A DNA stretch of 64,000 nucleotides from Candidatus Methylomirabilis sp. (lineage in GTDB: Bacteria; DYJV01). The notes below the pieces were generated by a model. The model ran no database searches, had not been told where the DNA came from, and saw only the letters and a program-made list of their open reading frames with translations. The position numbers were made by a program, and so were the translations under genes. Numbering within the stretch: the first letter of the stretch is position 1; each line of letters starts with the position of its first letter. The stretch covers positions 15,520 through 79,519 of the forward strand of contig DYJV01000001.1 of assembly GCA_020722945.1 (NCBI GenBank), given 5' to 3'. Below, one piece after another: positions 4,528-21,683 of the stretch.

Positions 4528-4550
4528 TTAATGGGATAAGAAGTATAGAT

Positions 4551-4850: not shown

Positions 4851-5013
4851 TTTTAAATTTTTCCATTTTCATTGTTCTAAATTGCTTGTCAAAAAAATAA
4901 AAGTTTGTTATTTTAACCATTAATATTTAATCTTGTATTTTCTTTTTTATAGGCATAGATATATTTGTTTAGTCTTAAAAATAAAATGATAAAAGAATCA
5001 AAAGGATTATAAA

Positions 5014-5493: not shown

Positions 5494-5499
5494 ATTTTT

Positions 5500-6471
5500 A
5501 TGTCAAATTATCTAATAAAAAGATTTCTAAGTATGATTATTCTTTTGTTTGGAATAACCTTGCTATCTTTTTCTGTTATACAGCTTGCACCGGGATCACC
5601 TATTGATGTAGAAACATCACTGAATCCCAAACTATCAAAAGAAGCTAAAGAGCAGCTTATCAAATTTTATGGTTTAGACAAACCTATTTACATCCAATAT
5701 TTTAACTGGCTAAAAAAAATAGTTGTTTTAGATTTTGGTTACTCATTTTCATCTGATCATAGGAAAGTTGTTGATAAAATAGTAGAGAGGATACCTATTA
5801 CCCTTATTTTGAATTTTTTGTCAATTTTGATTATTTTTATGATTGGAATTCCGATAGGTGTAATTGTTTCTATATATCAAAATAGCTTTGTAGATAAGTT
5901 TTTTTCATTTTTTGTTTTTATTGGATTTGCATTGCCTACTTTTTGGATTGCTCTTCTTCTTATGATGTTTTTTGGAATAAAATTGGGCTGGCTACCTATC
6001 TCAGGGATCAAATCATTCAATCATGAGAATCTTTCTTATCTTGCTAAAATTATTGACTATTCCAAACATTTGATTCTTCCCCTTTCTGTAAGCATAATAG
6101 GGGGTCTTGCGGGAATTTCAAGGTATGTAAGAGGGAATATGATTGAAGTTTTAAAAATGGATTGCATACTTGCTGCAAAAGCGAGAGGTATTTCTAAAGT
6201 TTCTATCTATATGAAACATGCTCTTAGGAATGCTTTGATTCCTGTTGTAACAATACTTGGATTATCTTTGCCCGGCTTAATAGGTGGAAGTGTTATTTTT
6301 GAGTCTATTTTTGGGATTCCGGGGATGGGGTTACTCTTTTATCAAAGTGTAATGGGGAGAGATTATCCTGTTATAATGGGAATACTTTTTATTGGTGCAA
6401 TCCTTACCTTGTTGGGAAACTTACTTGCGGATATATGTTATGCTTTTGCTGATCCAAGAATTAGAAAGTAG
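5500..6471 (+). CDS. ABC transporter permease, peptide/nickel (DppB/OppB-like) family
   Basis: 323-aa multi-TM protein with N-terminal IKRFLSMIILLFGITLLSFSVIQLAPGSP and the EAA-loop region AKARGISKVSIYMKHALRNALIP. Confidence 0.85.
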   Translation: MSNYLIKRFLSMIILLFGITLLSFSVIQLAPGSPIDVETSLNPKLSKEAKEQLIKFYGLDKPIYIQYFNWLKKIVVLDFGYSFSSDHRKVVDKIVERIPITLILNFLSILIIFMIGIPIGVIVSIYQNSFVDKFFSFFVFIGFALPTFWIALLLMMFFGIKLGWLPISGIKSFNHENLSYLAKIIDYSKHLILPLSVSIIGGLAGISRYVRGNMIEVLKMDCILAAKARGISKVSIYMKHALRNALIPVVTILGLSLPGLIGGSVIFESIFGIPGMGLLFYQSVMGRDYPVIMGILFIGAILTLLGNLLADICYAFADPRIRK

Positions 6472-6474
6472 TCT

Positions 6475-7305
6475 ATGTTAAATCTAAAATTTAGAAAGAA
6501 TATTTTATTTTTTTCAGGTATTATCTTAATTATTATACTCTTTATTTTTGCTATTTTTGCCCCTTATATAGCAAATTATAACCCCTCTGATATAGATATA
6601 AAAAGTATTCTTTCCCCACCATCACCAACCCACTTTTTAGGGACAGATGAGCTGGGGAGAGATGTTTTTTCAAGGCTTGTATATGCTTCAAGGGTTTCTA
6701 TCAAGGTTGCTTTCCTTGCGATAAGTATATCAGTGGTTATAGGTGTTTTATTGGGTTCTGTTTCAGGGATATTTGGAGGGGCAGTTGATTCTTTTATTAT
6801 GAGATTTGTTGATGTTATGTTATGTTTTCCAACTTTTTTTCTTATTCTTGCTGTTATTGCATATCTTGAGCCTTCTATCTTCAATGTTATGTTAATTATA
6901 GGAGCAACCAGCTGGATGGGAATCTGCAGGATGGTAAGAGCAGAGATACTCTCTTTAAAAAATAGGGAATTTGTTCTTTCAAGCCGTATAAGTGGAGCAT
7001 CTATTAGCAGGATTTTATTTATACATATACTTCCAAATGTTTTGCCAGTTGTCTTGGTATATGCAACTTTAGGGATAGGTGGAGCAATCCTTACTGAATC
7101 TTCTCTCTCTTTTTTGGGTCTTGGAGTTCAGCCTCCTAATCCAAGCTGGGGTAATATGTTGATGAGTGGTAAAGATAATATAGAATTTGCTTGGTGGCTC
7201 TCTGTTTTTCCGGGTTGTTCAATCTTTGTAACTATAATTGCTTTTAACTTTATTGGTGAAGGGTTACAAGATATTTTAAATCCAAAAAAGCTAAATGAAT
7301 CGTAA
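6475..7305 (+). CDS. ABC transporter permease, peptide/nickel (DppC/OppC-like) family
   Basis: 276 aa. HFLGTDELGRDVFSRLVYASR is typical of OppC/DppC, with the EAA-loop region SSRISGASISRILFIHILPNVLP. Confidence 0.85.
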   Translation: MLNLKFRKNILFFSGIILIIILFIFAIFAPYIANYNPSDIDIKSILSPPSPTHFLGTDELGRDVFSRLVYASRVSIKVAFLAISISVVIGVLLGSVSGIFGGAVDSFIMRFVDVMLCFPTFFLILAVIAYLEPSIFNVMLIIGATSWMGICRMVRAEILSLKNREFVLSSRISGASISRILFIHILPNVLPVVLVYATLGIGGAILTESSLSFLGLGVQPPNPSWGNMLMSGKDNIEFAWWLSVFPGCSIFVTIIAFNFIGEGLQDILNPKKLNES

Positions 7306-7927
7306 TATTTTTGAACAATATTATCAAAAATATGATAAATGGTATGATGAAAAAAAATTTGTATACTTATCAGAACTTCAACTCCTAAAAAAGGTTTTAT
7401 CTCATGTAGAAGGGTTATCTTTGGAAATTGGGGTTGGAAGTGGTAGATTTGCCTCTGAGCTGAATATTAGATATGGATTAGAACCTGCTTTTAATGCTAT
7501 TAAAGTTGCTTCATCAAGGGGTGTAATTTCTATATCAGGAGTTGGTGAATCATTACCATTTAAAGATAATTCTTTTGATTTAATTCTTTCACTTACTGTA
7601 TTTGAGTTTGTAAATGATTTAGATACTGTTTTAAATGAGATAAGAAGAGTTCTTGTTGGGAATGGAATTTTGTTAGTTTCTATTATTGATGCTGATTCTT
7701 TTTTGGGGAAAATATATAAAAGCAGTAGAGAATCTATATTTTATTCAAAAGCGAATATCTTTTCAGCTTCTGAACTTTTAAATATTCTTAACTCTTCAAA
7801 ATTTGAGGTTGTAGAAATTTATCAGACTCTTTTTAAAAAATTAGAGAAGATAGAAGAATCACAAAATTATAAAAAAGGTTTTGGTGAGGGTGGATATGTT
7901 GTTTTTAAAGCAGTAACTAAAAAATAG
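7295..7927 (+). CDS. Class I SAM-dependent methyltransferase
   Basis: SAM-binding motif I LEIGVGSGRFA plus a Methyltransf_11-like core (FDLILSLTVFEFV). Overlaps the upstream permease gene by 11 nt. Confidence 0.75.
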   Translation: MNRNIFEQYYQKYDKWYDEKKFVYLSELQLLKKVLSHVEGLSLEIGVGSGRFASELNIRYGLEPAFNAIKVASSRGVISISGVGESLPFKDNSFDLILSLTVFEFVNDLDTVLNEIRRVLVGNGILLVSIIDADSFLGKIYKSSRESIFYSKANIFSASELLNILNSSKFEVVEIYQTLFKKLEKIEESQNYKKGFGEGGYVVFKAVTKK

Positions 7928-8641: not shown

Positions 8642-9976
8642 ATGAAAATAAAGATTGATTACAATTTTTGTATGGAAGATATCATAGGTAAAGATGGGAT
8701 ATCACAGAAAGAAATATCCAAATTATCCCAATCTACAGAAGAAGTTCATAAAAAAATTATTAAAGAGAGAGATAATGATATTATTGGTTTTTACAAATTA
8801 CCTTTTTTAGATTGTAAAGATATTAAAAATAAAGCAAAAATTTTTCGAGAAAATTATAAAACTTGTGTCCTGATTGGAATAGGTGGTTCAGCATTAGGGG
8901 CAAATGCTATTTTTACTTCATTGTCAAAATTTTTTGATAATAGACTTTTTATTATTGATAATGTTGATCCAGATATATTTTATGAATTGATCGATAAGAT
9001 AAATATCAAAGAAACTTTTTTTGTTGTAGTTAGTAAATCTGGTGGCACAGCAGAAACAATCAGTAATTTTTTGGTTTTTCGAAAGTATTTGATTGATAAT
9101 CTTGGTTTTGAAGAGTATAAAAAGAGAGTTGTTATAATTACTGACTCTAAAAAGGGACCACTTAGAGAGTTAGTTTTATCTGAAAATTTAGAAAGTTTCT
9201 CTATCCCTGAAAATGTTGGGGGAAGATTTTCAGTTTTATCTGCTGCTGGGTTGTTTCCTTTAAGTTTTGTTGGAATAGATATAGAGCTAATCCTTGAAGG
9301 TGCAATATATATGAGTAATATCCTCCAAAATGATAATATTTTTGAGAATCCATCATATCTTCTTGGCTCCATACACTATTTAGCGTATCATAAAGGTAAA
9401 TCTATAAATGTTTTTATGCCATATTCCTCTAAGCTACATAAAATTGCTGATTGGTTTATCCAACTATGGGCAGAAAGTCTTGGGAAAGAGCTTATAGGGA
9501 TTACACCTCTCAAAGCAATTGGAGCTACTGACCAGCACTCTCAGTTACAGCTTTTTATGGAGGGTTCAAAAGATAAGCTCGTTACTTTTATTCAGATTGA
9601 GAAATTTAAAAATGATATACTGATTCCAGAGCAAGATATAAGTTCCAAATATAAATATCTGTTTAATCATTCTATGGGAGAGTTACTTAATAATGAGTGT
9701 AATGCTACTAAGGCTGCTCTTGCTATCAATGGTATTATGAATTATACTATTTTGCTTGAAGACCTAAATCCATTTATATTGGGAGAGTTACTTTTTATGT
9801 TTCAGGTGATGACTCATTATACAGGATATTTATTTGAAATTAATCCTTTCAATCAGCCAGGGGTTGAATTAGGTAAAGAATTTACCTACTCTATAATGGG
9901 AAGAGATAATTATGCAGAAAGACATCATGAGTATCTTAATTTGATAAGCAGAAGTAAAAAAGAGTATATCTTATAG
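8642..9976 (+). CDS. pgi: Glucose-6-phosphate isomerase (short bacterial/archaeal type)
   Basis: SIS-domain motifs GIGGSALG, VVSKSGGTAETI and GGRFSVLSAAGL, plus the catalytic-region motif TDQHSQLQLFMEG. Confidence 0.85.
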   Translation: MKIKIDYNFCMEDIIGKDGISQKEISKLSQSTEEVHKKIIKERDNDIIGFYKLPFLDCKDIKNKAKIFRENYKTCVLIGIGGSALGANAIFTSLSKFFDNRLFIIDNVDPDIFYELIDKINIKETFFVVVSKSGGTAETISNFLVFRKYLIDNLGFEEYKKRVVIITDSKKGPLRELVLSENLESFSIPENVGGRFSVLSAAGLFPLSFVGIDIELILEGAIYMSNILQNDNIFENPSYLLGSIHYLAYHKGKSINVFMPYSSKLHKIADWFIQLWAESLGKELIGITPLKAIGATDQHSQLQLFMEGSKDKLVTFIQIEKFKNDILIPEQDISSKYKYLFNHSMGELLNNECNATKAALAINGIMNYTILLEDLNPFILGELLFMFQVMTHYTGYLFEINPFNQPGVELGKEFTYSIMGRDNYAERHHEYLNLISRSKKEYIL

Positions 9977-9989
9977 TCCGGAGTATTTT

Positions 9990-12900
9990 ATGAATGATGA
10001 GTTTTCAGAATTTTTTTCTGATTTTTTAGTTGAAGCAGAAGAGCATATAACCAATATAAATAATTACCTATTAGAGATAGAAAGTCAGTTTAAGCAGGGA
10101 GAAGAGACCAGTTATGAGAGAATAAATGCTATTTTTAGAGCTGTTCATACTATAAAAGGCCTTTCTGGAATGCTTGGTTTTGAACCTCTTCAAAAACTTG
10201 CTCATGCTATGGAAGATCTTATGGGTGAAGTTAGAGAAGGAAAGAAAAAGCTTTCTGAGCCTATATTTAATATTCTTTTTTTATCTTCTGATCGGATAAA
10301 TCAGATGTTAGAAGAGATTAAGCTAAAAGGTTCTACTACTACTTCCCCTGACGATATTGTTAATAATTTAAGAGAAATAATAAGTAATAACATTGAGAAA
10401 AAAGAATCACCATCTCCAGAGTCTATAAATCTTGATTTTATTGATTTTAAAATCCCTATTGATGATTTAAAAATTACAGAGATAGAGAGTGCTCTTTTAA
10501 GAGATGTAATTAGTAAAGATTTAAATGTTTTTATGGTAGTTAAAGAGATTGCAGGTGGAATTTCAGAGGATAAATTTAATAAACTGCCAATATTTAAAGA
10601 TATAGATAATTGTGCTGACCTAATATTATATAGACCCACAATAGAAAATATTATATTATCTAAAAAAGACTCTATTTTTTGTTACTTTATATTTTCATCA
10701 AATGAAAGTTTTGATACTATCAAAGATAAATTTTTTGATGAGATAAAAGTTTTGAGAGTCTCTCTTAATTTAGATAATAAAAAGATTCAGGAGAGTAAAA
10801 TGGCTGAAGAATCAAATTTTGAAGTATTCAGATTAAAGGATGCAGGTTTTGATGAATCAATAGTTGCAGAATTTTTTGAGGAAGTTGATGAGCTCGTAGA
10901 AAGTCTTGATATGAATCTTCTTGAGCTTGAGAAATCTCCTCAGGATTCAGAAACATTGAATGCTATTTTTAGAGTTGCACATACGATTAAAGGTGCATCT
11001 TCAATGTTTGGGTTTGAACCTATTGTTAAGCTTACCCACTCTATGGAGAATCTCTTTGATAACCTTAGAAAAGGTTCTTTGATTGTTAACTCACAGATTA
11101 TGGATATATTTTTTCAAGGGGTTGACCTTTTAAAATCGATGCTCTCCTCTTTAAAAAATAAAGGGATAATAGACCAAAATTTTATCCCTATTGTAAAAAA
11201 TATTAATGATATACTCAACAATAAAGGGGGATCTATCCCATCATCAAAAAGCGAAGCTGATATTTCTGAGGTAAAAGATAGTAGTAAATCTCTAAATTCT
11301 TCTAATGGACTTGACATTGATCTTGACCCAGAGTTTTACAATGCTCTTTCGGAAAAAGAGATAAATTTCATTGGTGAGGAGATAGCGAAGGGGAATTATA
11401 TATATGAAGTTGATATTATCTACCCTCAAGATGTTTTACAGACAACCTTTAAGCCATTTGAGGGATTGTTTACCGGAATAGAAATAGTTGGTGAATTGAT
11501 ATCTGTTTTACCTGATATTGGTAAAGTTCCTGAACTTTCAGATTACGACATAGAGAAATTTTACATTTCATTAAAAGTTATAATATCATCTAATCTTTCA
11601 TTTGAATCTTTTAAATCAATGCTTGCAGGGTTTTCCGATACAATGGAGATGAATTTTAAAGAATTGAATAAGAGAAAAGATGACCATATAAAAATGATGA
11701 ATATCGAAGATAAAAAAGATATAAAAATTCAAAATTCTAAACCTCAGGAGCCAATTATTGTGAAACAAGATAGTCCAATATTAAAACAGGAGGCTCCTTC
11801 AGATTCACAAGGGAAAGATAAAGCTGATTCCTCCGCTTCTAAAAAATCTGGAGCTAATACAATAAGAGTGGATTTAGAGAGACTTGATAAATTGTTAAAT
11901 TTAGTCGGAGAATTTGTTATTGATAGGACAAGATTTGCACAAATAAGTCAGGAGCTTAGAGAAAAATTCCCGCATGATCCTCTAATTGTTCAATTGAATG
12001 AAACCAACCAGATATTTGGTAGACATATGAATGAGATACAAGAAGTCATAATGAGTGTCAGGATGATACCTATTGGCAATACTTTTAACAAATACCCAAG
12101 AATAGTGAGAGATTTAGCAAAAGATAGTGAAAAGGAGATAAATCTTGAAATAAGTGGGCAGGAGACAGAACTTGATAAAACTCTTGTTGAGGAGATAGGT
12201 GACCCTTTGGTTCACTTGATAAGAAATGCCATTGATCACGGAATTGAAAAGCCTGAGGAGAGAATAAAAAAGGGTAAACCTAAACAGGGCACAATTAAGC
12301 TTTCAGCTCATCATGAGGGTAACCATATTGTAATTACAATATCAGATGATGGCAATGGAATTGATACAGAGAGAGTGAGGTTAAAAGCTATTGAGAAGGG
12401 TTTGATAAGGGAAGATGACAATATGTCTAAAAAAGATCTTCTCAATCTTATTTTTGAACCTGGTTTTTCTACGGCTGCTAAGGTTACAAACATAAGTGGA
12501 CGTGGTGTTGGTATGGATGTTGTAAAGAGAAATATCTCCAAGTTAAAGGGGATTGTTGATATTGATACATTTGTTGGTCAGGGCACTACAATAAAAATTA
12601 AATTACCGTTAACTTTAGCTATTATTCAGGTTTTAATGGTTCAAGTTGCAAGTGAAATATTTGCTATTCCTCTTCCATCTATTATTGAAACAATAAGAAT
12701 AGCAAAAAATGAGATACAGATAATAGAAAACTATGAAATGATTACATTGAGAGATTCTGTATTGCCTATTGCAAGAATTAAAGATATTTTTGAGTTAGAT
12801 GATAAATCAAATAAAGGCTCCCTTTCTTATAATAATGAACTTGAACTTGATGAAAGTGGAAAATATTTTATTGTTATTGTAGGACTTGCAGAGCAGAGAG

Positions 12901-13085
12901 TTGGTTTGATAGTTGACCGTCTTATTACCCAGCAAGAGGTAGTTATTAAATCTTTAGGAGCTCTGCTCAAAAATTCCCGAGGTATTGCTGGAGCAACTAT
13001 ACTTGGTAATGGTAAAGTTGCACTTATTTTAGATATTGGTGAAGTTATAGAAGGTCTTAAAAGTATTGGAGTTGCAACTTTTTAG
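9990..13085 (+). CDS. cheA: Chemotaxis histidine kinase CheA, long form with two HPt (P1) domains
   Basis: Two HPt phospho-His motifs: AVHTIKGLSGMLGF near aa 50 and VAHTIKGASSMFGF near aa 330. P3 dimerisation region IRVDLERLDKLLNLVGEFVI. HATPase motifs LVHLIRNAIDHGIE, DDGNGID and GRGVGMDVV. C-terminal CheW-like P5 domain. Confidence 0.9.
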   Translation: MNDEFSEFFSDFLVEAEEHITNINNYLLEIESQFKQGEETSYERINAIFRAVHTIKGLSGMLGFEPLQKLAHAMEDLMGEVREGKKKLSEPIFNILFLSSDRINQMLEEIKLKGSTTTSPDDIVNNLREIISNNIEKKESPSPESINLDFIDFKIPIDDLKITEIESALLRDVISKDLNVFMVVKEIAGGISEDKFNKLPIFKDIDNCADLILYRPTIENIILSKKDSIFCYFIFSSNESFDTIKDKFFDEIKVLRVSLNLDNKKIQESKMAEESNFEVFRLKDAGFDESIVAEFFEEVDELVESLDMNLLELEKSPQDSETLNAIFRVAHTIKGASSMFGFEPIVKLTHSMENLFDNLRKGSLIVNSQIMDIFFQGVDLLKSMLSSLKNKGIIDQNFIPIVKNINDILNNKGGSIPSSKSEADISEVKDSSKSLNSSNGLDIDLDPEFYNALSEKEINFIGEEIAKGNYIYEVDIIYPQDVLQTTFKPFEGLFTGIEIVGELISVLPDIGKVPELSDYDIEKFYISLKVIISSNLSFESFKSMLAGFSDTMEMNFKELNKRKDDHIKMMNIEDKKDIKIQNSKPQEPIIVKQDSPILKQEAPSDSQGKDKADSSASKKSGANTIRVDLERLDKLLNLVGEFVIDRTRFAQISQELREKFPHDPLIVQLNETNQIFGRHMNEIQEVIMSVRMIPIGNTFNKYPRIVRDLAKDSEKEINLEISGQETELDKTLVEEIGDPLVHLIRNAIDHGIEKPEERIKKGKPKQGTIKLSAHHEGNHIVITISDDGNGIDTERVRLKAIEKGLIREDDNMSKKDLLNLIFEPGFSTAAKVTNISGRGVGMDVVKRNISKLKGIVDIDTFVGQGTTIKIKLPLTLAIIQVLMVQVASEIFAIPLPSIIETIRIAKNEIQIIENYEMITLRDSVLPIARIKDIFELDDKSNKGSLSYNNELELDESGKYFIVIVGLAEQRVGLIVDRLITQQEVVIKSLGALLKNSRGIAGATILGNGKVALILDIGEVIEGLKSIGVATF

Positions 13086-13108: not shown

Positions 13109-13444
13109 GTGGATATTAAAAAAAATGTAGAAGGTAGTATTTTTATAATTCAAATTGATGGGAATCTAATTCTTTCTGATCTTAAAGAGGCAAGAGATTT
13201 TGTAAAAAATTGCATTGATAACGAAAATGCTACCGAAATAATTTTTAATCTTGATAATGTTGATTTTATAGATTCTGCAGGTATAGGTTTTATTGTATCT
13301 GTTTTTAAATCTATAAAATCGAGAAATGGTAAATTTGGACTTGCATGTCTTAAATCAAAGCCTAAAGAAGTCTTTAAACTGACAAGGCTTGATAAAATTA
13401 TCCCTATTTATGATAATGTAGAGAGGGCAAAGCAGGAGCTTTAA
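13109..13444 (+). CDS. STAS-domain anti-sigma-factor antagonist (SpoIIAA/RsbV-like)
   Basis: 111 aa. VDFIDSAGIGFIV keeps the phosphorylatable Ser of the DS(S/T)G motif. GTG start with GGGAGGG upstream. Confidence 0.8.
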   Translation: MDIKKNVEGSIFIIQIDGNLILSDLKEARDFVKNCIDNENATEIIFNLDNVDFIDSAGIGFIVSVFKSIKSRNGKFGLACLKSKPKEVFKLTRLDKIIPIYDNVERAKQEL

Positions 13445-13445
13445 G

Positions 13446-13943
13446 ATGATAGAGGAGAATATAAATAATCTTTTAAAGAGTGAAGATTTTGAGACAAAGA
13501 TTAAATTTGATAATAGGGTTCAGATGGTTGGCTTCAAACTTGGCAATGAAGAGTATATGGTTGAAATCAATAAAATCCGTGAGATTATTATGACTGCTGA
13601 AATTACCTATGTGCCAAGAGTTTCTGCTTACTTTGAAGGAGTTATAAATCTTAGAGGTCGAATAGTCCCTATAATAAATCTCAGAAAGAAGTTAAATATG
13701 CCCATTCAGGAAATTACCAGAACTACAAGAATTTTAATTATGGAAATACTTGATATGAGTGTAGGTTTTATTGTTGATAGAATTACTAAGGTTATTATTA
13801 TTCCTGAAAAAAATATAGATGCTACACCTACAACTTTTGGAAGTATTGCTGCAGAGTTCATAACTGGAGTGGGAAGATTTGAAAACAAAATAATTGGGTG
13901 GATAAATGTAGAAAAAATAATTGAAGATTGCATGGTAAAATAA
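13446..13943 (+). CDS. cheW: Chemotaxis coupling protein CheW
   Basis: 165 aa with a CheW-fold signature: VGFKLGNEEYMVEINKIREI and GVINLRGRIVPIINLRKKL. Begins 1 nt after the STAS gene stop. Confidence 0.85.
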   Translation: MIEENINNLLKSEDFETKIKFDNRVQMVGFKLGNEEYMVEINKIREIIMTAEITYVPRVSAYFEGVINLRGRIVPIINLRKKLNMPIQEITRTTRILIMEILDMSVGFIVDRITKVIIIPEKNIDATPTTFGSIAAEFITGVGRFENKIIGWINVEKIIEDCMVK

Positions 13944-15385
13944 TGGAGGTTGTTTTAGGAATAGATTTTGGAACAACTAATTCAGTTGTTGCAACATTTA
14001 TTAATAACCAGCCAGCAATCATAAAAAATAAAGATGGCAATAATATTACACCTTCTGTCGTATCTTATTCTAAGGATAAAGCCTTATTAGTAGGGGATTC
14101 AGCTAAAAGGCAGATAATTATAAACCCTGAAAATACAATCTCATCAATTAAACGCTTTATTGGAGATAAAAAAAAGTTTAAAGTTGGGAATGAATTTTTA
14201 TCTCCTCACGAAATTGCTTCAAAGATATTATCATATATAAAAGAATCTGCTGAAGCTTTCTTTTCTACTCAAATTTCAAAAGCTATTATTACAGTTCCTG
14301 CATATTTTACAAATAATCAGAGAAATCTTACAAAATTAGCGGGTAAATTAGCTGGTCTTGATGTCCTTAGAATTTTGAATGAACCTACTGCTGCTGCTCT
14401 TTCATATGGGTTTGATAACAATTTTAAAGGGAATATTATGGTTTTTGACTTTGGTGGAGGAACATTTGATGTTTCTATACTTGAAGTTGAAGATGGTGTT
14501 TTTGAGGTAAAATCTACAGCAGGCAACAATTTTTTAGGTGGAGATGATTTTGATTTTAGAGTTGTTAATTTATTAATTGATGATTTTAAATCTAAATACA
14601 ATATTGATTTAAAAAATGACAAAATGGCATTTCATAAAGTAAAAGAGCAGGCAGAGAAGGCAAAGATATCCTTATCTACAAGTAAAGAAGTCTTTATAAA
14701 CATCCCTTTTATCTCTGCAGATGAGAATGGAGTTAAACATTTAGAATATTTATTGACTATAGAGGAATTTGACAAAATAACAGAAGATTTAGTTGATCAA
14801 ACATTGGTATGTGTAGAAAATGCATTAAAAGATGCTTCTATGACCCCTGCAAATATTGATAATATAATATTTGTCGGTGGCTCAACCCAAATAAAGCAAT
14901 TTTCTGATAAAATTTATCAATTTATGGGGAAACATCCTGAAAAAAATATTAACCCTATGTTTGCTGTTGCTATGGGAGCTGCTATACAAGGTAATATAAT
15001 TGCAGGGGATAAGAAAGATATAGTTTTACTTGATGTAAATTCCCTTACTCTTGGTGTTGAGACAAAAGGGAATATATTTGTCCCTATAATAAACAGATGC
15101 ACTACAATTCCTGTAAGGGAGAGTAGGCTTTTTACTACTGTGAGGGATAATCAAGATAGCGTCAACATAAATATTTATCAAGGGGAAAGCAATGATTGCT
15201 CATATAACTCTTTTATTGGGGCAATACAATTAACAAATATCCCTCCTCAACCTAAAGGTGTGCCCAGAGTAGAAGTTATTTTTGATATAGATGTTGATGG
15301 AATACTTAATATCTCTGTTATAGATCAAAAAAATGGTTGTAAGCAGGATATGACTGTTGATAATTGTTTTTTGGAGAGTCTATAA
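13943..15385 (+). CDS. Atypical Hsp70-family ATPase (nucleotide-binding domain plus beta substrate-binding domain; no helical lid)
   Basis: Motifs GIDFGTTNS, VPAYFTNNQR, ILNEPTAAAL, DFGGGTFDVS and FVGGSTQI, then SBD-beta (LLDVNSLTLGVETKG ... INIYQGE). About 480 aa versus about 610-640 for DnaK. I place the start at ATG 13943, which shares one base with the cheW stop (TAATG). The ORF track offers 13928. Confidence 0.85.
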   Translation: MEVVLGIDFGTTNSVVATFINNQPAIIKNKDGNNITPSVVSYSKDKALLVGDSAKRQIIINPENTISSIKRFIGDKKKFKVGNEFLSPHEIASKILSYIKESAEAFFSTQISKAIITVPAYFTNNQRNLTKLAGKLAGLDVLRILNEPTAAALSYGFDNNFKGNIMVFDFGGGTFDVSILEVEDGVFEVKSTAGNNFLGGDDFDFRVVNLLIDDFKSKYNIDLKNDKMAFHKVKEQAEKAKISLSTSKEVFINIPFISADENGVKHLEYLLTIEEFDKITEDLVDQTLVCVENALKDASMTPANIDNIIFVGGSTQIKQFSDKIYQFMGKHPEKNINPMFAVAMGAAIQGNIIAGDKKDIVLLDVNSLTLGVETKGNIFVPIINRCTTIPVRESRLFTTVRDNQDSVNINIYQGESNDCSYNSFIGAIQLTNIPPQPKGVPRVEVIFDIDVDGILNISVIDQKNGCKQDMTVDNCFLESL

Positions 15386-15391
15386 TATATA

Positions 15392-16315
15392 ATGAATAGA
15401 GAACAATATTATACATGCTTAAAAACTTTGAACCTTGACAATAGTGCTTCAATAGAAGACATCAAAAGAGCATATAGACTTTTAGTGAAGAGATACCATC
15501 CAGATATTGCAGGGAAAAGTGAATTCTGTGTTAATAAATTTAGAGAAATTACTAAGGCTTACAAGATATTACTGAATGAAAGAATAGATGTTTCATGTGA
15601 AACTAATAGTAGGAATTTTGCTTCTATTGTAAATAACCTTTTTTTGAAAAATTTAAATCTTAATAATTGTTTGTCCATTTTTAAAAGGAGTAGAAAATTT
15701 GAAGATGTTAAGTTTGACAAACTTTTTCTAAAAGAGGTTGACTCGTCAGTTCTATCTTTGGGTGAGGATGAGCTTATTTTTAGGTTAGAAGGGAGTGCAA
15801 ACCTCTATGTTATGGTTGAAGCAGTAAAAGGATTATATAAGATTGCTTCTTTAGATGCTCTTATTGCAATAGTCAGTAATTATTATAAATACAGTAAAGA
15901 TTTAAAACTTTTTGTATCTTTCCTTACCAAAAAAAAGATTGATATTATATCTCAGTGGCTAAATGAAATGATATTTTACGATAACTATAATATTTTAATA
16001 TCAGTGTTATCTTATCTTTACAACATCAATGAGGATATTAAAGAGAGAAAATTAATAAAAAATTTTATAAGTGATAATATAGGTTTACTTAAATTTGAAG
16101 CATCAAAATTTTCTATTATATATAAGGGTGTTTTTTCAAGTAATGAGTTAAAATTTGGTGAAAAGTTGCTTTTTTCAAAAAAGATAGATGACCAGCAGCT
16201 TGGTGTTGCTCTTGGAGTTAAAAAAAAATTCAGCAATGTAAAGATAGGGAAAATTTTTGTAGATCTTGGATTTTTAACTTATAAAGAGCTTGAAGAGATT
16301 TTAAAAGATAGATGA
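15392..16315 (+). CDS. J-domain protein with an uncharacterised 240-aa C-terminal region
   Basis: N-terminal J domain with HPD (IEDIKRAYRLLVKRYHPDIAG ... ITKAYKILLNE). No Gly/Phe or zinc-finger region. Begins 6 nt after the Hsp70 gene. Confidence 0.8.
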   Translation: MNREQYYTCLKTLNLDNSASIEDIKRAYRLLVKRYHPDIAGKSEFCVNKFREITKAYKILLNERIDVSCETNSRNFASIVNNLFLKNLNLNNCLSIFKRSRKFEDVKFDKLFLKEVDSSVLSLGEDELIFRLEGSANLYVMVEAVKGLYKIASLDALIAIVSNYYKYSKDLKLFVSFLTKKKIDIISQWLNEMIFYDNYNILISVLSYLYNINEDIKERKLIKNFISDNIGLLKFEASKFSIIYKGVFSSNELKFGEKLLFSKKIDDQQLGVALGVKKKFSNVKIGKIFVDLGFLTYKELEEILKDR

Positions 16316-16340: not shown

Positions 16341-17723
16341 ATGAAAGTAGGATTTTACAATTTTAATTATAAAAACAGTAATTTTGAAGTTTATAAAATA
16401 AAAGATATAGATGAATTGCAAAAAAAAGATATTGATTACCTTTTTATTTTTGCTGATAATGAACAAGAATTTCAAAATATATTGTCAAAATTATTTACTC
16501 AATCTTTAGAAGTAAAGTTTATACCTATATTAGAAAGAAAAAACCTTAAATTAATATCAAAATTTCTTTCTATGGGAGCAGTTACATTTATTTCTGAACC
16601 TTATGTTGAGAATATTGAAAAGAATTTATTACTACTTTCCAAGATAGATAAGCCTGAAAAACTTTCACCTTTTGTTGAAGAATTTGAAGGTATTATTGCC
16701 AAAAGTAACAAGATGTTTGATGTTTTTAGCACAATTAAAAAAGTTGCAAATAGTAGTTCTACTGTTTTGATAACAGGTAGTAGTGGGACTGGTAAAGAGC
16801 TTGTTGCTAAAGCACTTCATAATAGAAGTAGCAGGCGTGATAAACCTTTTGTTCCTATCAATTGTGGTGCTATCCCTGAAAATTTATTGGAGAGTGAATT
16901 ATTTGGTTTTGCAAAAGGTTCTTTTACAGGTGCAAACTCAAATAAAGTTGGTAAATTGCAAATTGCAGATAAAGGGACACTATTTCTTGATGAGATAGGG
17001 GAAATGCCACTGCAGTTACAGGTAAAGTTATTAAGATTTCTTCAAGAAGGTGAAGTCCAGCCGATTGGTTTTGATAAACCTATAAAAGTAGATGTAAGAG
17101 TCGTTGCAGCTACAAACAAAAATTTAGGAGTTCTTATAAAGAATAAACTTTTTAGAGAGGATCTCTTCTTCAGACTGAATGTCATACACATTGACCTTCC
17201 TGATTTAAAAGATAGAGATGGTGATATCATGCTTCTTGCTGAATATTTTTTTAAGAAATTTACCAAAAAAAATCAGAAAGAGGAGCTTCTTGATGGAATC
17301 TCTGATGAAGCTATCTATATTATGGAAAATTACAGTTGGAATGGGAATGTCAGAGAGCTTGAGAATACAATAGAACGCCTTGTTATTCTGAAAGATTCTG
17401 GCTCTATACTCCCTTCAGATTTGCCTGCAAGATTTTTTGATAATTTTGATGATAGTGCAGAGTCTCTTGCTATTAGAAACGAGGATAATGATTTAGAATC
17501 TTTATCTTCAGATAGAAACTTCGAGGAGAAAGAATATCTTAATTCTATAATAAAAATTAGCAATGAGGGGATTGATCTTAACAATATAATTGAAAATCTT
17601 GAAACCAATCTTATTATTCAGGCATTAGAAAAAGCTGGAGGTGTAAAAGAGAAAGCAGCAAAACTCCTTAATATTAAAAGGACTACACTAATTGAAAAAT
17701 TAAAACGTAAAAATCTTATGTAA
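16341..17723 (+). CDS. Sigma-54-dependent transcriptional activator (bEBP) with a degenerate receiver-like N-terminus
   Basis: AAA+ motifs GSSGTGKE (Walker A), ESELFGFAKGSFTGA (GAFTGA variant), LFLDEIGEM (Walker B) and NVRELEN. C-terminal Fis-type HTH AAKLLNIKRTTLIEKLKR. Confidence 0.85.
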   Translation: MKVGFYNFNYKNSNFEVYKIKDIDELQKKDIDYLFIFADNEQEFQNILSKLFTQSLEVKFIPILERKNLKLISKFLSMGAVTFISEPYVENIEKNLLLLSKIDKPEKLSPFVEEFEGIIAKSNKMFDVFSTIKKVANSSSTVLITGSSGTGKELVAKALHNRSSRRDKPFVPINCGAIPENLLESELFGFAKGSFTGANSNKVGKLQIADKGTLFLDEIGEMPLQLQVKLLRFLQEGEVQPIGFDKPIKVDVRVVAATNKNLGVLIKNKLFREDLFFRLNVIHIDLPDLKDRDGDIMLLAEYFFKKFTKKNQKEELLDGISDEAIYIMENYSWNGNVRELENTIERLVILKDSGSILPSDLPARFFDNFDDSAESLAIRNEDNDLESLSSDRNFEEKEYLNSIIKISNEGIDLNNIIENLETNLIIQALEKAGGVKEKAAKLLNIKRTTLIEKLKRKNLM

Positions 17724-17731
17724 TCGAAATA

Positions 17732-20293
17732 ATGAGAAAAACTTTATATATATTTTTTATTTTATCTCTATCTACTCTTATATATTCAGCAAATCTAAAT
17801 TATCTTTTAGATATAAAATACAGAGATTTTCCTGATAAAAAATTTGTAAGATTGGTTTTATACCTCTCCACGCCTCCACTATTTCAAGAGATAAAAAAAA
17901 AAGACCCATATAATGTTGAGATAGTTTTAACTGATACAGATATAAAAAAATTTTATGGTAATCTAAAAATCCCATCTCAATTTATAAACGAAATATCTAC
18001 AACTCAAAATAAGAAAAATTTAGTAATAAATATAAATCTAAAATCTGAAATAGTTGAATGGAGTCATATAAAATCAGATGCCCCCCCATTACTTTATATA
18101 AAAATAAGCACTAAAGATGCCAAAACACTTGAACCAAATAATATTGAAGACAACGGAACTTTACAAAAGTTTGACAATGCTACCCCAAAACAGCTACCAC
18201 CTTCTCAAAAAATTATTCAAGACAATAGTTCAAAAATAGTAAAAAGAGACAATTTAACCAAACTTCATTCAGCGATAGATAATGGAACAATTTTGGATAA
18301 TAAAAGTTCACAGATTAAACAAGATAAAAAGATTGAAGTTGACGAGAATATTTTAAAGATAAAGATTGATGAAGCAAGAAACTTTTATAATAAAGGTTTA
18401 CAGCTTATGGCAGAAAAAAAATATACAGAAGCTATAGATATCTTTGATTATAATGTAAAAAATAGTGACAAAACAAATCCTTTTAATTTTAAGTCGAGAT
18501 ATAGGATAGTTGATTGTGTATATTATAATGGTGATCCAAAAGATGCAAAGTTGTATATGAGTTTAGTGAGGGAGTATATTGATTTGATAAGTAATTATCC
18601 TGACAAAGATGAGACTGGTTGGGCAGCTTTTCAACTTGCTAATTGCTATAAAAAAATGGGTTTCTTTGAAGAAGCATTAGGAAGCTACAAATATGTAATT
18701 AAATATTTCCCCGATTCTGAATATAAAGTCAATGCATCTATTGAGGAGGGGAATATACTATATTTATTGAAAAAATATCAAGATGCACTTAATAGTTACA
18801 AAGAGTTACTCACTAAATCGCCAGATTCTGTAATTGGGAACAACCTTAGATACCTCATTGGGAACTGTTTATATGAATTAAAAAAGTATAATGAAGCGAA
18901 AAATATTTACGAAGAAGCTCTCAAAAGGGATACTACTTTTGCGGATAAAAGCCCAGAAATGCTTTATAATATTGCAAATACCTATTTTTATCTAAAGAAG
19001 TATACTGTTGCAAGGGAGTATTTTATGAAAATAAGAAATCTTTTCCCTAATAGCAACTATTTTGACCTATCTCTATTAAAAATAGGGGAGACATACCTCC
19101 AAGACAAAGATTATAATTCTGCTCTATATATATTCAAAAGAGTTGTTGATGCTACTGAAAATACTGATAATATTATAGTTGCAAGACTTGAAATGGCAGA
19201 TATTGGACTTGAAAAAAAGATAAAAGATAAAGATGTATATGAAAAATATAAAAATTTCTTAGATCCTGATACTGCATATAATTATATTATAAATAATTAT
19301 GGCAACAATGAACTTGTCCAGATTGCTATGTCAAGGTTGATAAACTACTATTTAGACCAGAGTAGAAATAATGATGCGTTGATCTATCTTGAAGAGTTTT
19401 ATTCAAGATTTCCTGAAAGCAATATCAAGCAAAAAATGGATGAAAAGATGTTGTTAGCATTAAATAAGTATATTCTTGATTTATTTAAAGTTTACGATTA
19501 TGGGAAAGTGATATACTTTTATGAAAAATATAAAAATAGCTATTTAAAAGAGTTTAAACCTCTTGATGTGTATAAAGCTATCTTTTTATCCTACAAAAAT
19601 CTTGATTTAAGTGGCCAAGGTCGAGATATATTAGAAAATTTATCAGCTAAATATAATAATGACCCTGACATTCAGTTTGAATTAATTGAAGATAGTTATA
19701 AAAGTAAAGCTTATAAAAAAGTTATCCTTGAAGCTGGAAAATATTATCAAAAATATCCTGAATCAAAAAAGATTAATAGAGTTAAATTTTATGAAGCATT
19801 ATCGTATAAAAATCTTAAAAATTATCAGAAAGCGTCAAATATACTCTTTGATTTATTAAAATCTGATATTGTTAATGAGGATAAAGGGAGAGATGTTTTT
19901 TATCTTGCAGAAATATTTAGAGAAACAGGTGATTATGAGAATGCTTTAAAGCTTTACTCAACTGTTACAGAAAATTATAATGAGGAAATTTTAGGGAAAA
20001 ATATAATTAAAGATTCATATTTTTATGCGGGGTATATGAAATATTTATTGAAAAATTATCAAGATGCTGTTAATGATTTCACTAATTTTAGAAATCTTTA
20101 TCCTGAACATCATCCAGATGAAGTTATTTATTATATAATAAGTAGCTTTGCTAAAAATTCAAAATATGAAGAAGCACTCAATTTTTTTGAAAATAATAAA
20201 AATAATTTTAAAAATGAAGCTTTTTTAAAATTATCATCTGAAGTTATAGATAATATTAAATGGAGTCAAAAGTTAAACCTTGATGGAAAATAG
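17732..20293 (+). CDS. Secreted or periplasmic TPR-repeat protein with an AMIN-like N-terminal domain
   Basis: Signal peptide MRKTLYIFFILSLSTLIYSA. An N-terminal beta-rich segment resembles an AMIN domain (VRLVLYLS ... VEIVLTD ... LVININLK ... LLYIKIS). About 600 aa of TPR-like repeats follow, with recurrent Y..A...Y..........P motifs. Confidence 0.7.
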   Translation: MRKTLYIFFILSLSTLIYSANLNYLLDIKYRDFPDKKFVRLVLYLSTPPLFQEIKKKDPYNVEIVLTDTDIKKFYGNLKIPSQFINEISTTQNKKNLVININLKSEIVEWSHIKSDAPPLLYIKISTKDAKTLEPNNIEDNGTLQKFDNATPKQLPPSQKIIQDNSSKIVKRDNLTKLHSAIDNGTILDNKSSQIKQDKKIEVDENILKIKIDEARNFYNKGLQLMAEKKYTEAIDIFDYNVKNSDKTNPFNFKSRYRIVDCVYYNGDPKDAKLYMSLVREYIDLISNYPDKDETGWAAFQLANCYKKMGFFEEALGSYKYVIKYFPDSEYKVNASIEEGNILYLLKKYQDALNSYKELLTKSPDSVIGNNLRYLIGNCLYELKKYNEAKNIYEEALKRDTTFADKSPEMLYNIANTYFYLKKYTVAREYFMKIRNLFPNSNYFDLSLLKIGETYLQDKDYNSALYIFKRVVDATENTDNIIVARLEMADIGLEKKIKDKDVYEKYKNFLDPDTAYNYIINNYGNNELVQIAMSRLINYYLDQSRNNDALIYLEEFYSRFPESNIKQKMDEKMLLALNKYILDLFKVYDYGKVIYFYEKYKNSYLKEFKPLDVYKAIFLSYKNLDLSGQGRDILENLSAKYNNDPDIQFELIEDSYKSKAYKKVILEAGKYYQKYPESKKINRVKFYEALSYKNLKNYQKASNILFDLLKSDIVNEDKGRDVFYLAEIFRETGDYENALKLYSTVTENYNEEILGKNIIKDSYFYAGYMKYLLKNYQDAVNDFTNFRNLYPEHHPDEVIYYIISSFAKNSKYEEALNFFENNKNNFKNEAFLKLSSEVIDNIKWSQKLNLDGK

Positions 20294-21683
20294 TGTTGTA
20301 ATCATAAATAACAATCTCAAGACTCTGGAGCAATTCTCTGAAATAATAAAAGATTTACAGTTCAAGCCTCTCCTTTTTCACGATGTTGCAGAGGGTTTAA
20401 AATACATAGAACGTAGCACCCCATATCTATTAATTACAGATATATTTTTCAGTGAGTATAGTCCTGAAGAGTATTGGAAAATCTTAAAATCATTAAGTGT
20501 TGCACCTATCCTAATTGTATCAGATAAACCTTCAAATGAATTTGGTCCTAATATGATTCGTGATGGTGCGATCGATTATTTACTCACTCCTATAGAAAGA
20601 GAGCAGATAAGGTTTATATTTGCAAAATTAAAATTAAAGGAGAAGAGGGATAAATTTATTCACAGGCAGTTTATCACAAATAATGCTAAAATGTTAAAAA
20701 TTCTTAAAGTTGTTGAAGTTGCTGCTAAAAGTAAATCCACTGTCTTTATAAGGGGAGAAAGCGGAGTTGGTAAAGAGTTGATTGCAAGAATGATTCATGA
20801 AAAGAGCAATAGGAGTAATGGACCATTTGTTGCTGTTAATTGTGCTGCACTACCTGAAAATTTATTAGAAAGTGAGTTGTTTGGCCACGAAAAGGGGAGT
20901 TTTACAGGAGCAATAAATACAAAGCTTGGTAAATTTGAATTAGCAGATACAGGAACAATATTATTGGACGAGATTACTGAGATGAGTTTTCCACTTCAAG
21001 CAAAACTATTAAGAGTGCTCCAAGAGAGGGAGATAGATAGAATAGGTGGAAGAGAGCCTATCAAAATTGATATAAGAGTTATTGCTACTACAAATAGAGA
21101 TATAAAGAAGATAATAGATGAGGGGAATTTTAGGGATGATCTTTATTACAGATTAAATGTTATCCCTGTCCTAATTCCACCACTTAGAGAGAGAAAGGAT
21201 GATATCTCAATACTTGGAAAATTTTTTATAGAAAAGCATTGTATGCTCAATCAGATACCGGTTAAATCAATATCTGAGTATGCAATAAAGAAATTGCAGG
21301 AGTATGATTGGCCCGGTAATGTAAGGGAGCTTGAAAATATTATTGAACGAGCCGTAATTGTAACTATTGGTAATATAATTGATCAAAATTCTATATTTTT
21401 TGAAGATGATATAGAGAGTATTTACGATAATGATATCCAAACAGAACAATGCACCAATACAGATTTGGACAACCAATACCAAATTCCACACAATAGTAAT
21501 CAGCAGGGTGGTATCTCTATAAAACCTGGAACAACTATCTCAGAGATGGAGAAAAAACTGATTGTTGAAACATTAAAATCGGTCAACCTAAACAGAACTC
21601 TTGCGGCAGAATTACTTGGGATAACTGTCAGGACATTGAGAAACAAATTAAATGAATACAAAGAGTTTGGAATAATTTTATAG
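20280..21683 (+). CDS. Sigma-54-dependent transcriptional activator with a pseudo-receiver domain
   Basis: REC-like N-terminus lacks the acidic pair and the conserved Lys (VVIINNN, LLITDIFF, DYLLTP). AAA+ motifs GESGVGKE, ESELFGHEKGSFTGA, LLDEITEM and NVRELEN. Fis-type HTH AAELLGITVRTLRNKL. TTG at 20280 or ATG at 20283; overlaps the TPR gene stop. Confidence 0.85.
   Translation: MMENSVVIINNNLKTLEQFSEIIKDLQFKPLLFHDVAEGLKYIERSTPYLLITDIFFSEYSPEEYWKILKSLSVAPILIVSDKPSNEFGPNMIRDGAIDYLLTPIEREQIRFIFAKLKLKEKRDKFIHRQFITNNAKMLKILKVVEVAAKSKSTVFIRGESGVGKELIARMIHEKSNRSNGPFVAVNCAALPENLLESELFGHEKGSFTGAINTKLGKFELADTGTILLDEITEMSFPLQAKLLRVLQEREIDRIGGREPIKIDIRVIATTNRDIKKIIDEGNFRDDLYYRLNVIPVLIPPLRERKDDISILGKFFIEKHCMLNQIPVKSISEYAIKKLQEYDWPGNVRELENIIERAVIVTIGNIIDQNSIFFEDDIESIYDNDIQTEQCTNTDLDNQYQIPHNSNQQGGISIKPGTTISEMEKKLIVETLKSVNLNRTLAAELLGITVRTLRNKLNEYKEFGIIL

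Follow-up and report, generated by a model that had tools for sequence, protein, structure and literature searches.

Organisation and conservation of the gene block

The stretch of DNA analysed here, referred to as the window, comprises 64,000 nucleotides (nt) of contig DYJV01000001.1 of Candidatus Methylomirabilis sp. (assembly GCA_020722945.1, positions 15,520 to 79,519), and all positions given below are counted from its first letter. It contains a chemosensory gene cluster in which cheA, a STAS-domain gene and cheW are followed by genes for an Hsp70 without a helical lid and for a J-domain protein (J-protein). Inspection of the open reading frame (ORF) coordinates and junctions reproduced exactly the arrangement reported in a preliminary description of this DNA: the five genes are co-directional, the gaps between them are 23, 1, -1 and 6 nt, and the cheW stop codon shares one base with the start codon of the Hsp70 gene (TAATG). 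The Hsp70 N-terminus resulting from this start, MEVVLGIDFG, agrees with those of homologues. The preliminary description let the operon end with the J-protein gene; its content from cheA to this gene is retained, but the end is not, since an equally conserved gene for a sigma-54 enhancer-binding protein (EBP1) comes 25 nt later (Table 1).

The order cheA-STAS-cheW-hsp70-J was found in every related locus recovered (L001/L002, L003/L004, L085, L086, L087 and L091), that is, the cheW-hsp70-dnaJ synteny, the recurrence of which had been left to comparative genomics, recurs in all of these relatives. The junctions from cheW to the J gene range from -4 to +5 nt across these loci, the cheA orthologues are 62-65% identical, and a sigma-54 activator of 443-445 amino acids (aa) directly follows the J gene wherever the contig of the relative is long enough. 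Between these two genes, L003, L085 and L086 have -4 to +3 nt, L091 has 9-10 nt and L001 about 158 nt. On both sides of this six-gene block the flanks vary from locus to locus. The genes for the tetratricopeptide repeat (TPR) protein and for the second enhancer-binding protein (EBP2), located downstream in the window, also occur in L001 and L091, whereas in L003 and L085 the former is replaced or absent and the latter is absent. In L085 the place after the block is taken by surE and thrS, with neither TPR protein nor EBP2 downstream, and in L091 flgF, flgG and flgA come next, which indicates that this lineage is flagellated. On the other side, pgi lies directly upstream of cheA in L001, L003, L085 and L091, which are all the loci reaching that far, and nifU is often conserved upstream together with it, the gaps being equally small. 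The block has been inherited as a unit while its flanks changed.

Table 1. Genes and protein domains of the block and its vicinity
Feature	Position	Strand	Length	Evidence and remarks
cheY-type response regulator	3156-3536	+		NCBIfam CheY, E 4e-48; 6.5 kb upstream
Receiver-like domain + RsbW/SpoIIAB-type serine kinase fusion	3724-4527	+		Pfam HATPase_c_2, E 4e-18; Response_reg weak
pgi (glucose-6-phosphate isomerase)	8642-9976	+		Pfam PGI; 13 nt before cheA
cheA	9990-13085	+	1031 aa	Pfam; ORF and junction check
STAS gene	13109-13444	+	111 aa	GTG start; Shine-Dalgarno GGGAGGG
cheW	13446-13943	+		Pfam CheW, E 1e-35
Lid-less Hsp70	13943-15385	+	480 aa	ATG within TAATG
J-protein	15392-16315	+	307 aa
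J-protein: J domain	15392-15586	+	aa 1-65	HPD; Pfam DnaJ, E 1.5e-13 (residues 11-63)
J-protein: HEAT-like alpha-solenoid	15719-16141	+	aa ~110-250	AlphaFold2 model; HEAT_2 in distant relatives
J-protein: MshEN_N-like domain	16151-16312	+	aa 254-307	Predicted; tandem 24-residue motifs KFGEKLLFSKKIDDQQLGVALGVK and KIGKIFVDLGFLTYKELEEILKDR
EBP1, sigma-54 enhancer-binding protein 1	16341-17723	+		Pfam; receiver-like N-terminus (degenerate), AAA+ with GSFTGA, HTH_8
TPR protein	17732-20293	+	853 aa	Pfam TPR families; variable accessory of the block
EBP2, sigma-54 enhancer-binding protein 2	20280-21683	+		Pfam; atypical receiver; variable accessory

A clade of Hsp70 proteins without a lid

As first noted from the sequence, the Hsp70 comprises a nucleotide-binding domain and the beta part of the substrate-binding domain (SBD-beta) and ends at about 480 aa, with no helical lid or C-terminal tail. 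It matches the Pfam HSP70 profile with E 3.5e-170 at positions 1-498 of 599, its alignment spans residues 2-471 of the G. kaustophilus DnaK, and it reaches approximately residue 501 of E. coli DnaK, which is the last SBD-beta strand, followed by a tail of 7-9 residues. Nine protein clusters, out of 5.8 billion, make up the clade, each 480-482 aa long and sharing 62-67% identity. The lid and C-terminal tail (Pfam positions 499-599) are absent in all of them, and the chain ends with EYPFMxNI in most members and with VDNCFLESL in the window protein. Below the clade there is a gap in identity, the next matches being canonical DnaKs at 51-53%. The window protein scores below the cut-offs of the DnaK equivalog models (625.2 vs 648 for NF001413, 609.7 vs 822.6 for TIGR02350) and far below those for HscA (454 vs 620 for NF003520, 451 vs 709 for TIGR01991).

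Functional residues were compared among the nine lid-less proteins, 36 canonical DnaKs and E. coli DnaK, the landmark residues of the latter being verified in the reference sequence. The catalytic residues D8, K70, E171, D194, T199 and D201 (E. coli numbering) are invariant in all nine members, as are P143, R151, R167, N170 and T173, involved in allostery and J-domain contacts, while K155 is replaced by R in one member. The interdomain linker is conserved within the clade as a hydrophobic stretch (I/V/L-V/I-L-L/V/I-D) closing in D393. Variation among the allosteric and J-contact positions is peripheral, namely D148 to N in four members and N415 to C in the window protein. The substrate-binding arch is changed: the position M/L404 is occupied by K in most clade members (also by Y or S) versus L in the 36 canonical DnaKs, and A429 by V or I versus A. 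In addition, I401 is replaced by V, and R467, the partner of the lid latch, by K. Judged by these residues, the Hsp70 retains all that is required to hydrolyse ATP, to respond to a J domain and to couple its domains, and looks like an active, re-specialised chaperone. A lid-truncated DnaK should remain stimulated by J-proteins, bind and release its substrate quickly and tolerate folded clients. By analogy, the Hsp70s of the clade should exchange substrate fast and accept folded clients.

Two further candidates were considered and set aside. P0016 (770 aa), which resembles an Hsp70-J fusion, is a canonical DnaK in which the assembly has duplicated an internal part. The Hsp70-like and J pair of L083 (Brevinematales) does not belong to the same family, being 27% identical, in the J region only, and located in another context.

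Domain architecture of the J-protein

The preliminary description reported an HPD-containing J domain, no glycine/phenylalanine-rich (G/F) or zinc-finger region, and an unrecognised C-terminus. The first two points hold and conform to a class III J-domain protein: DnaJ is the sole Pfam match, and the linker at residues 66-106, modelled with low confidence, shows no G/F enrichment. The J domain has PDB sequence matches from E 2e-11 and Foldseek matches to J domains with root-mean-square deviations (rmsd) of 1.1-3 A, and its YHPD is invariant in 10 of the 10 aligned sequences of this architecture. The C-terminus, on the other hand, can be assigned, to a HEAT-like and an MshEN_N-like part. In the AlphaFold2 model the former is all-helical, with predicted local distance difference test scores (pLDDT) of 70-90, and by itself gives weak matches to ARM/HEAT folds in Foldseek; the presence of Pfam HEAT_2 in distant full-length relatives, described below, settles this middle domain as HEAT-like.

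The C-terminal domain is matched by the NCBIfam model NF053729 ('c-di-GMP-binding domain, MshE-related'; c-di-GMP, cyclic di-GMP) with E 7.8e-7 in the window protein and, at best, 2.7e-9 among the 6 of 7 family members matched, while the Pfam T2SSE_N model gave no match to it. Among PDB sequences, it matches all three GSPII domains of PilF from Thermus thermophilus. For the AlphaFold2 model of aa 236-307 (pLDDT 77), the top Foldseek match is the c-di-GMP complex of MshE, 5HTL (probability 1.0; 50 columns superposed with an rmsd of 1.1 A), and the next ones are PilF GSPII-A/B and the N-terminal domain of PilB; Foldseek E-values are not significant for a domain of so small a size. According to this model, the domain is predicted to have the four-helix-bundle fold of MshEN_N. 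The relaxed MshEN motif is [RKPN]hGxxhhxx[GAS]hhxxxxhxxxhxx[QNKRYWST] (PMC5013675), and in both the window protein and L085 the second of the two motifs of the J-protein fits it at every position. Outside the J domain, the most conserved part of the ten sequences is the MshEN-like core, with G256, L259, Q269, L270, L274, G286, I288 and L292. An isolated MshEN_N domain is sufficient to bind c-di-GMP, with a Kd of 0.35 uM, and fusions of it with CheA, CheX and REC are known, as is the combination of MshEN with HEAT repeats in M. xanthus FrgA; the published list of MshEN architectures includes no J-domain fusion (PMC5013675). Binding of c-di-GMP by the domain of the J-protein is plausible, with chances that we judge to be roughly even.

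The separate Hsp70 clade, the loss of the lid throughout it, the changed arch and the non-canonical J-protein bear out the earlier view that these two genes encode a specialised, co-inherited pair distinct from the housekeeping DnaK/DnaJ.

Close and distant relatives of the J-protein

Only five relatives of the J-protein, with 42-54% identity, were found among 5.8 billion protein clusters, which brings its family to 6 clusters, and its carriers are limited to 2 GTDB species representatives and 2 JGI metagenome contigs. In order to find more distant homologues, an exhaustive profile search was performed with the solenoid and the MshEN-like part as the query against 1.84 billion representatives. 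High scores were confined to the clade itself. About 200 proteins matched the MshEN-like segment alone, many of which contain canonical repeats, several per protein. The search also recovered five distant relatives related over their full length (281-339 aa), all with a J domain, HEAT_2 and a C-terminal tandem motif; HEAT_2 passes the Pfam cut-off of 27.7 in two of the five (41.9 bits in P0324 and 37.2 bits in P0332).

In three of the distant loci (L092, L096 and L097) the J-HEAT-MshEN gene is directly followed by a STAS gene of 111-112 aa, and in one further case (L094/L095) it is divergent from a pair of fliN-like and fliM-like genes; L093 is too short to show neighbours. No Hsp70 gene is located beside the distant J-HEAT-MshEN genes in these loci. 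The residue Ser56 is invariant in 8 STAS proteins, including those encoded beside the distant J-HEAT-MshEN genes. A ComFB gene directly follows the pair in L096 (1997-2278, minus strand) and L097 (3077-3358, minus strand); this family was recently described as cyclic-dinucleotide receptors, so that two candidate receptors are adjacent in the distant lineage.

Chemosensory and partner-switch components

According to Pfam, CheA consists of two Hpt domains, H-kinase_dim, HATPase_c and a CheW-like domain, with a weak P2-like region and no receiver; with the Hpt, dimerisation, kinase and CheW-like domains of CheA and with CheW, the chemosensory core is present. Both Hpt (P1) domains are complete, each with the phospho-accepting His motif HTIKG, and the P2-like segment lies between them. 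This layout is kept in P0141, the closest out-group CheA, the kinase core of which is 63% identical. The next nearest kinase cores are those of CheAY of Campylobacterota and Hippea, with about 50% identity. The preliminary description placed the block in a Che-like pathway; an alternative pathway of this kind seems unlikely, as the CheA core is nearest to flagellar-type CheA of Campylobacterota and one relative (L091) has flagellar genes adjoining the block.

P0141 is encoded in a complete che cluster, L089, which opens (4314-7677) with genes for a YcgR-like PilZ protein (PilZNR and PilZ), a STAS protein and a HEAT protein of 788 aa, preceding cheR, cheB, cheY, cheA with the double Hpt, and two cheW genes. 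CheA proteins of this type and J-proteins of this type are therefore both accompanied by a STAS protein, HEAT repeats and a domain of c-di-GMP-receptor type, these three functions being encoded by separate genes in L089. Homology of the J-protein solenoid to the 788-aa protein is unsupported (hhalign probability below 1%).

In Pfam searches of the window and related loci, no gene for a methyl-accepting chemotaxis protein (MCP), CheR, CheB or CheY was found in the conserved block. Chemotaxis genes of the window are scattered: besides cheY and cheA/cheW, there is an MCP gene (24324-26999), 2.6 kb past EBP2, and cheX (57765-58229, plus strand), 36 kb past it, and none of those outside the block is syntenic in relatives. 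The cheX gene, coding for a CheX-type phosphatase of phosphorylated CheY, is isolated, flanked by cysS and the ATP synthase operon. The upstream CheY is a possible phospho-acceptor for the CheA of the block.

The STAS protein matches Pfam STAS with E 8e-21 and TIGR00377 with 75 bits against a cut-off of 53.45, and has a phosphorylatable Ser in a DSAG motif; it is thus predicted to be a SpoIIAA-type anti-sigma-factor antagonist. The kinase domain encoded at 3724-4527 matches the RsbW and SpoIIAB models with E from about 1e-10 to 5e-11, and could be the partner-switch kinase that acts on the STAS protein, a link that we infer. The succession of cheY and this receiver-kinase gene (3156-4527) resembles a phosphorylation-controlled partner-switch kinase, with a logic like that of CrsR of Shewanella oneidensis. 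These two genes do not adjoin the block in relatives. No PP2C gene was found within the window.

Sigma-54 activators and the TPR protein

EBP1 contains the Pfam domains Sigma54_activat (E 6e-71) and HTH_8, and its best PDB match is FleQ (E 6e-109). Its N-terminal 110 aa have no conserved phospho-acceptor Asp or Lys in five orthologues. A receiver signature, GA..F..PF, was recognised in this region by motif inspection, whereas profile comparison with CheY was not significant, so its likeness to a receiver is a reading at the motif level. Pfam gave no match in EBP1 to the N-terminal domain family of FleQ, and in the alignment with FleQ, read by eye, the c-di-GMP contacts of FleQ are replaced (R144 by E, Y, Q or C, R185-N186 by K-A, and E330/R334 by Y/K). 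The best NCBIfam match of EBP2 is FlbD, with 422 bits against a cut-off of 750, and its receiver is atypical, with NN in place of DD and Thr in place of Lys. Neither activator looks like a normal substrate of CheA.

The TPR protein has a hydrophobic N-terminus and a weak Pfam match to AMIN (E 0.0017). A comparison with flagellar disc proteins of PflA/PflB type gave only generic TPR matches in PDB and NCBIfam and a weak match to FlcA.

Transcription signals and the surrounding region

No terminator was predicted at any junction from cheA to EBP2; the single plus-strand site is internal to cheA, and the total of 4 sites compares with 4.6 expected from shuffled sequence. Promoter-like sites in the window occur at chance level (98 observed vs 92.6 expected). 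The best sigma-70-like match of the region, TTGATA-18-TATAAT (11 of 12 positions, 15357-15386, plus strand), falls at the very end of the hsp70 coding sequence, immediately ahead of the J gene, in AT-rich DNA. A search for sigma-54 promoters revealed no convincing site within the block, and the window has no match to any Rfam RNA family.

The GC content of the window is uniform at about 0.30. PADLOC returned no match for the STAS, Hsp70, J and TPR proteins, and together with the uniform composition this led us to reject an anti-phage defence or mobile island; EBP1 matched generic RtcR AAA+ models only.

Farther along the window, a sigma-54-type promoter-like sequence, TGGAAT-N5-TTGCT (39322-39337, minus strand), is located 54 nt upstream of a split set of glutamate-synthase-like genes on the same strand (38120-39268, 36504-38165 and 34126-36471), which code for Glu_synthase, GXGXG/Fer4 and pyridine-nucleotide oxidoreductase domains. 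This site is a plausible target of a sigma-54 activator of the window or of NtrC encoded elsewhere in the genome. The c subunit of ATP synthase (59342-60076, plus strand) is a 244-aa fusion of three hairpins, seen as three Pfam ATP-synt_C stretches. Only hairpin 1 keeps the ion-binding carboxylate (AVAES), while hairpins 2 and 3 carry Gln (AVSQT and AVSQS), so that three hairpins would share a single ion site. The gene contains no tandem repeat at the DNA level, which indicates that the fusion is old.

Possible function of the block

We tentatively propose, with a confidence somewhat short of even, that cheA, the STAS gene, cheW, the lid-less hsp70, the J-HEAT-MshEN gene and the sigma-54 activator gene form one block, in which the dedicated chaperone pair regulates a folded signalling protein and is not concerned with general folding. 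The HEAT solenoid would select a native client and hand it over to the lid-less Hsp70, and the chaperone cycle would set the availability of the delivered signalling protein. The favoured client would be the STAS partner-switch protein or its complex, because it is the sole partner reappearing beside the distant J-HEAT-MshEN genes. Through the MshEN-like domain, the delivery may be made conditional on c-di-GMP or else on a partner protein. Downstream of CheA, the outcome could be a change in transcription, in flagellar behaviour or in both; transcription would be reached by way of the partner switch, of the sigma-54 activator, which acts independently of phosphorylation, or of both. The preliminary description had suggested a dedicated chaperone pair wired into a Che-like pathway and remodelling the array, the STAS protein or a downstream regulator. 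The specialised pair and the recurrent synteny agree with this suggestion, except that the pathway seems not to be an alternative one, and the distant pairing of J-HEAT-MshEN and STAS genes moves the STAS protein to the front, with the other clients kept as rivals; the possible link to c-di-GMP and the conserved sigma-54 activator were additional points, missed earlier.

A more specific version may also be formulated, in which c-di-GMP bound by the MshEN-like tail of the J-protein would gate the handover of the STAS protein (or EBP1) by the HEAT domain to the lid-less Hsp70. The ATPase cycle would then be a signalling switch joining the chemosensory kinase, c-di-GMP and transcription or motility, and J-HEAT-MshEN with STAS would be an undescribed, phylogenetically scattered pair. 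In this full form the proposal is rather unlikely to be correct.

A number of observations weigh against the proposed regulatory role or its parts. The clade is narrow. All genes in the first 27,870 nt of the window (1-27870) are on the plus strand, and 14 of the 21 junctions there, including that of pgi and cheA (13 nt), are 25 nt or shorter; co-direction and compactness being features of the whole region, the small gaps around the Hsp70 and J genes are not specific to the five genes and say little. As pgi, an unrelated housekeeping gene, is as syntenic as the block, part of the synteny reflects inheritance and not selection. The recurrence of the gene order thus stands, but its weight as evidence for the wiring is reduced by the narrow clade and the conserved pgi. 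In the distant loci the gap between the J and STAS genes is 146-460 nt, and the three loci share ComFB and RecO neighbours, so that they amount to about one independent lineage and one observation. As to the MshEN-like domain, the NF053729 score of the window protein is 28.8, below the curated cut-off of 38. The first motif fits in 9 of 9 members only when positions 10-11 are freed, with the turn Gly replaced by K, D or E and the following hydrophobic residue mostly by K or R; I19R is among the changes listed for XpsE, which does not bind c-di-GMP (PMC5013675). Both leading Arg residues of the motifs are replaced by Lys, and the spacer between the motifs has 6 residues (KKFSNV) versus the canonical 5, although in the alignment GSPII-C of T. 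thermophilus PilF likewise has a longer spacer. Finally, the sigma-54 activator is linked as tightly as the STAS gene and could be the client instead.

The latter possibility, that the Hsp70/J pair holds EBP1 inactive or dismantles its oligomer, as in FleN-FleQ or DnaK-sigma-32, with the MshEN-like domain supplying the c-di-GMP input missing from this activator, is unlikely. It starts from a receiver-like domain that would not be open to phosphorylation. Wherever a locus is long enough, EBP1 succeeds the J gene, often with a 4-nt overlap, and it combines a best solved relative in FleQ with an N-terminus lacking the conserved Asp and Lys and with replaced FleQ c-di-GMP contacts. However, no sigma-54 activator is found beside the distant J-HEAT-MshEN genes, and the receiver-like reading of the N-terminus comes from motif inspection, with no support from profile comparison.

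Alternatively, the pair could build, remodel or dismantle the array of CheA, CheW and receptors or the flagellar switch (FliM/FliN), as a c-di-GMP-responsive brake or turnover device with a purpose like that of YcgR. Several features point in this direction, namely the overlap of the Hsp70 start with the cheW stop, the distant J-HEAT-MshEN gene divergent from the fliN-like/fliM-like pair, the YcgR-like PilZ gene of the out-group che cluster, the flagellar rod genes beside the block in one relative, and the known fusions of MshEN_N to CheA and CheX. The adjacency to FliM/FliN genes, however, is confined to a single lineage in which the genes are divergent, the conserved block contains no flagellar structural gene, and nothing singles out a component of the array. 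We consider this explanation quite improbable.

It is still less probable that there is no functional link at all, and that a diverged chaperone paralogue came by chance to lie downstream of cheW in a compact, slowly rearranging genome. This view would account for the conservation of pgi and nifU upstream with equally small gaps, for the compact co-directional region and for the narrow clade, and the sigma-70-like match just before the J gene would fit it as well, though promoter-like sites are no more frequent than by chance. It is harder to reconcile with the six genes staying together while their flanks vary, with a J-protein bearing a signalling-type domain, and with the reappearance of a STAS gene beside the distant J-HEAT-MshEN genes. 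A service of the pair to a type IV pilus or secretion system, with the MshEN-like domain mimicking the N-terminus of PilB/GspE ATPases and the AMIN/TPR protein as a secretin-associated partner, is very improbable: the fold does match the N-terminal domains of MshE, PilF and PilB, the TPR protein has its weak AMIN match and cyanobacterial DnaK1-DnaJ3-GrpE binding PilB is a precedent (PMC12288463), but neither the window nor the related loci contain pilus or secretion genes, and the TPR gene is not constant in the block.

Regulation of a folded signalling protein by the pair would be of interest because Hsp70s are usually viewed as folding machines, and those acting as regulators, such as in sigma-32 control, HscC, StkA and cyanobacterial DnaK1, are few and mechanistically poorly understood. 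The system is minimal, with an Hsp70 reduced to an ATPase and a beta-sandwich, a J-protein with an obvious adaptor and a likely ligand-binding domain, and few candidate clients encoded alongside. Its parts are small, soluble and can be made recombinantly, which renders the way an Hsp70 is wired into a signalling pathway directly testable. The J-HEAT-MshEN protein may represent a new class of c-di-GMP effector, and its recurrent pairing with STAS points to a variant of the partner switch involving a chaperone. What restricts this interest is that the hosts form a narrow, uncultured group.

Comparison with known systems

In agreement with the preliminary description, full-text literature searches revealed no characterised che operon with an embedded Hsp70/J pair; neither a lid-less Hsp70 family of this kind, nor the J-HEAT-MshEN architecture, nor the pairing of the latter with STAS was found in them. 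Hsp70 paralogues encoded beside their own class III J-protein and serving few native clients are exemplified by HscC/DjlC and HscA/HscB of E. coli. Their Hsp70s keep the lid and have no link to chemotaxis or c-di-GMP.

A close functional likeness among Hsp70s is seen in Myxococcus xanthus. StkA (540 aa) is also a shortened, non-heat-shock Hsp70 and a genetic regulator connected with a Che-like system. It is placed after type IV pili and before Dif in chemosensory-controlled exopolysaccharide production and social motility (PMC4319316), in which SglK is grouped with it as another Hsp70 homologue. In contrast to the Hsp70 described here, StkA is encoded outside any che operon, next to stkB and stkC and with no adjacent dedicated J-protein, and is longer than 480 aa. 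Cyanobacterial DnaK1-DnaJ3(TPR)-GrpE is likewise a dedicated Hsp70/J system with a repeat-domain J-protein; it is linked to the motility machinery, and a chemotaxis-like system is required for its localisation (PMC12288463). It differs in binding PilB and Hfq of type IV pili, in having GrpE and a full-length DnaK, in the use of TPR in place of HEAT and MshEN, and in the location of its genes beside pilBTC.

Anti-sigma-factor antagonists inside cheA/cheW clusters are known from the F7 'stage 1-2' clusters (PMC7184735) and from Che1 of Shewanella oneidensis with CrsR/CrsA (PMC9855816), where they are linked to a receiver-containing anti-sigma kinase and a transcriptional output. These gamma- and beta-proteobacterial clusters are complete, with MCP, CheR, CheB, CheD and CheY, and, unlike the present block, include no Hsp70, J-protein or sigma-54 activator. 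With FleQ/FleN of Pseudomonas aeruginosa the block shares an activator nearest to FleQ among solved structures, a receiver-like domain that would be non-phosphorylatable and, in the reading with EBP1 as the client, the proposed logic of a separate ATPase partner. The c-di-GMP contacts, however, are not kept in EBP1, and FleN is a MinD-type ATPase and not an Hsp70/J pair.

The predicted C-terminal domain of the J-protein has in common with the MshEN domains of V. cholerae MshE, T. thermophilus PilF (GSPII), MshEN_N-CheA, (MshEN_N)2-CheX and FrgA (MshEN-UNK-HEAT) two tandem 24-residue motifs of the hGxxhh...L...L kind, the first of them fitting imperfectly, and the predicted four-helix bundle. 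It differs from them in its fusion to a J domain, which is not listed for the known domains, in the missing turn Gly of the first motif, in the 6-residue spacer and in Lys in place of Arg. An Hsp70 system joined to a domain of c-di-GMP-receptor type and stabilising one specific native protein is represented by the PilZ-DnaK proteins CsdK1/CsdK2 of M. xanthus (PMC10313047), in which PilZ is carried by the Hsp70 itself and not by the J-protein, the substrate-binding domain is full-length and the context is not chemotaxis. Placed among these systems, the locus is a new form of specialised Hsp70/J pair within a wider class that is already known.

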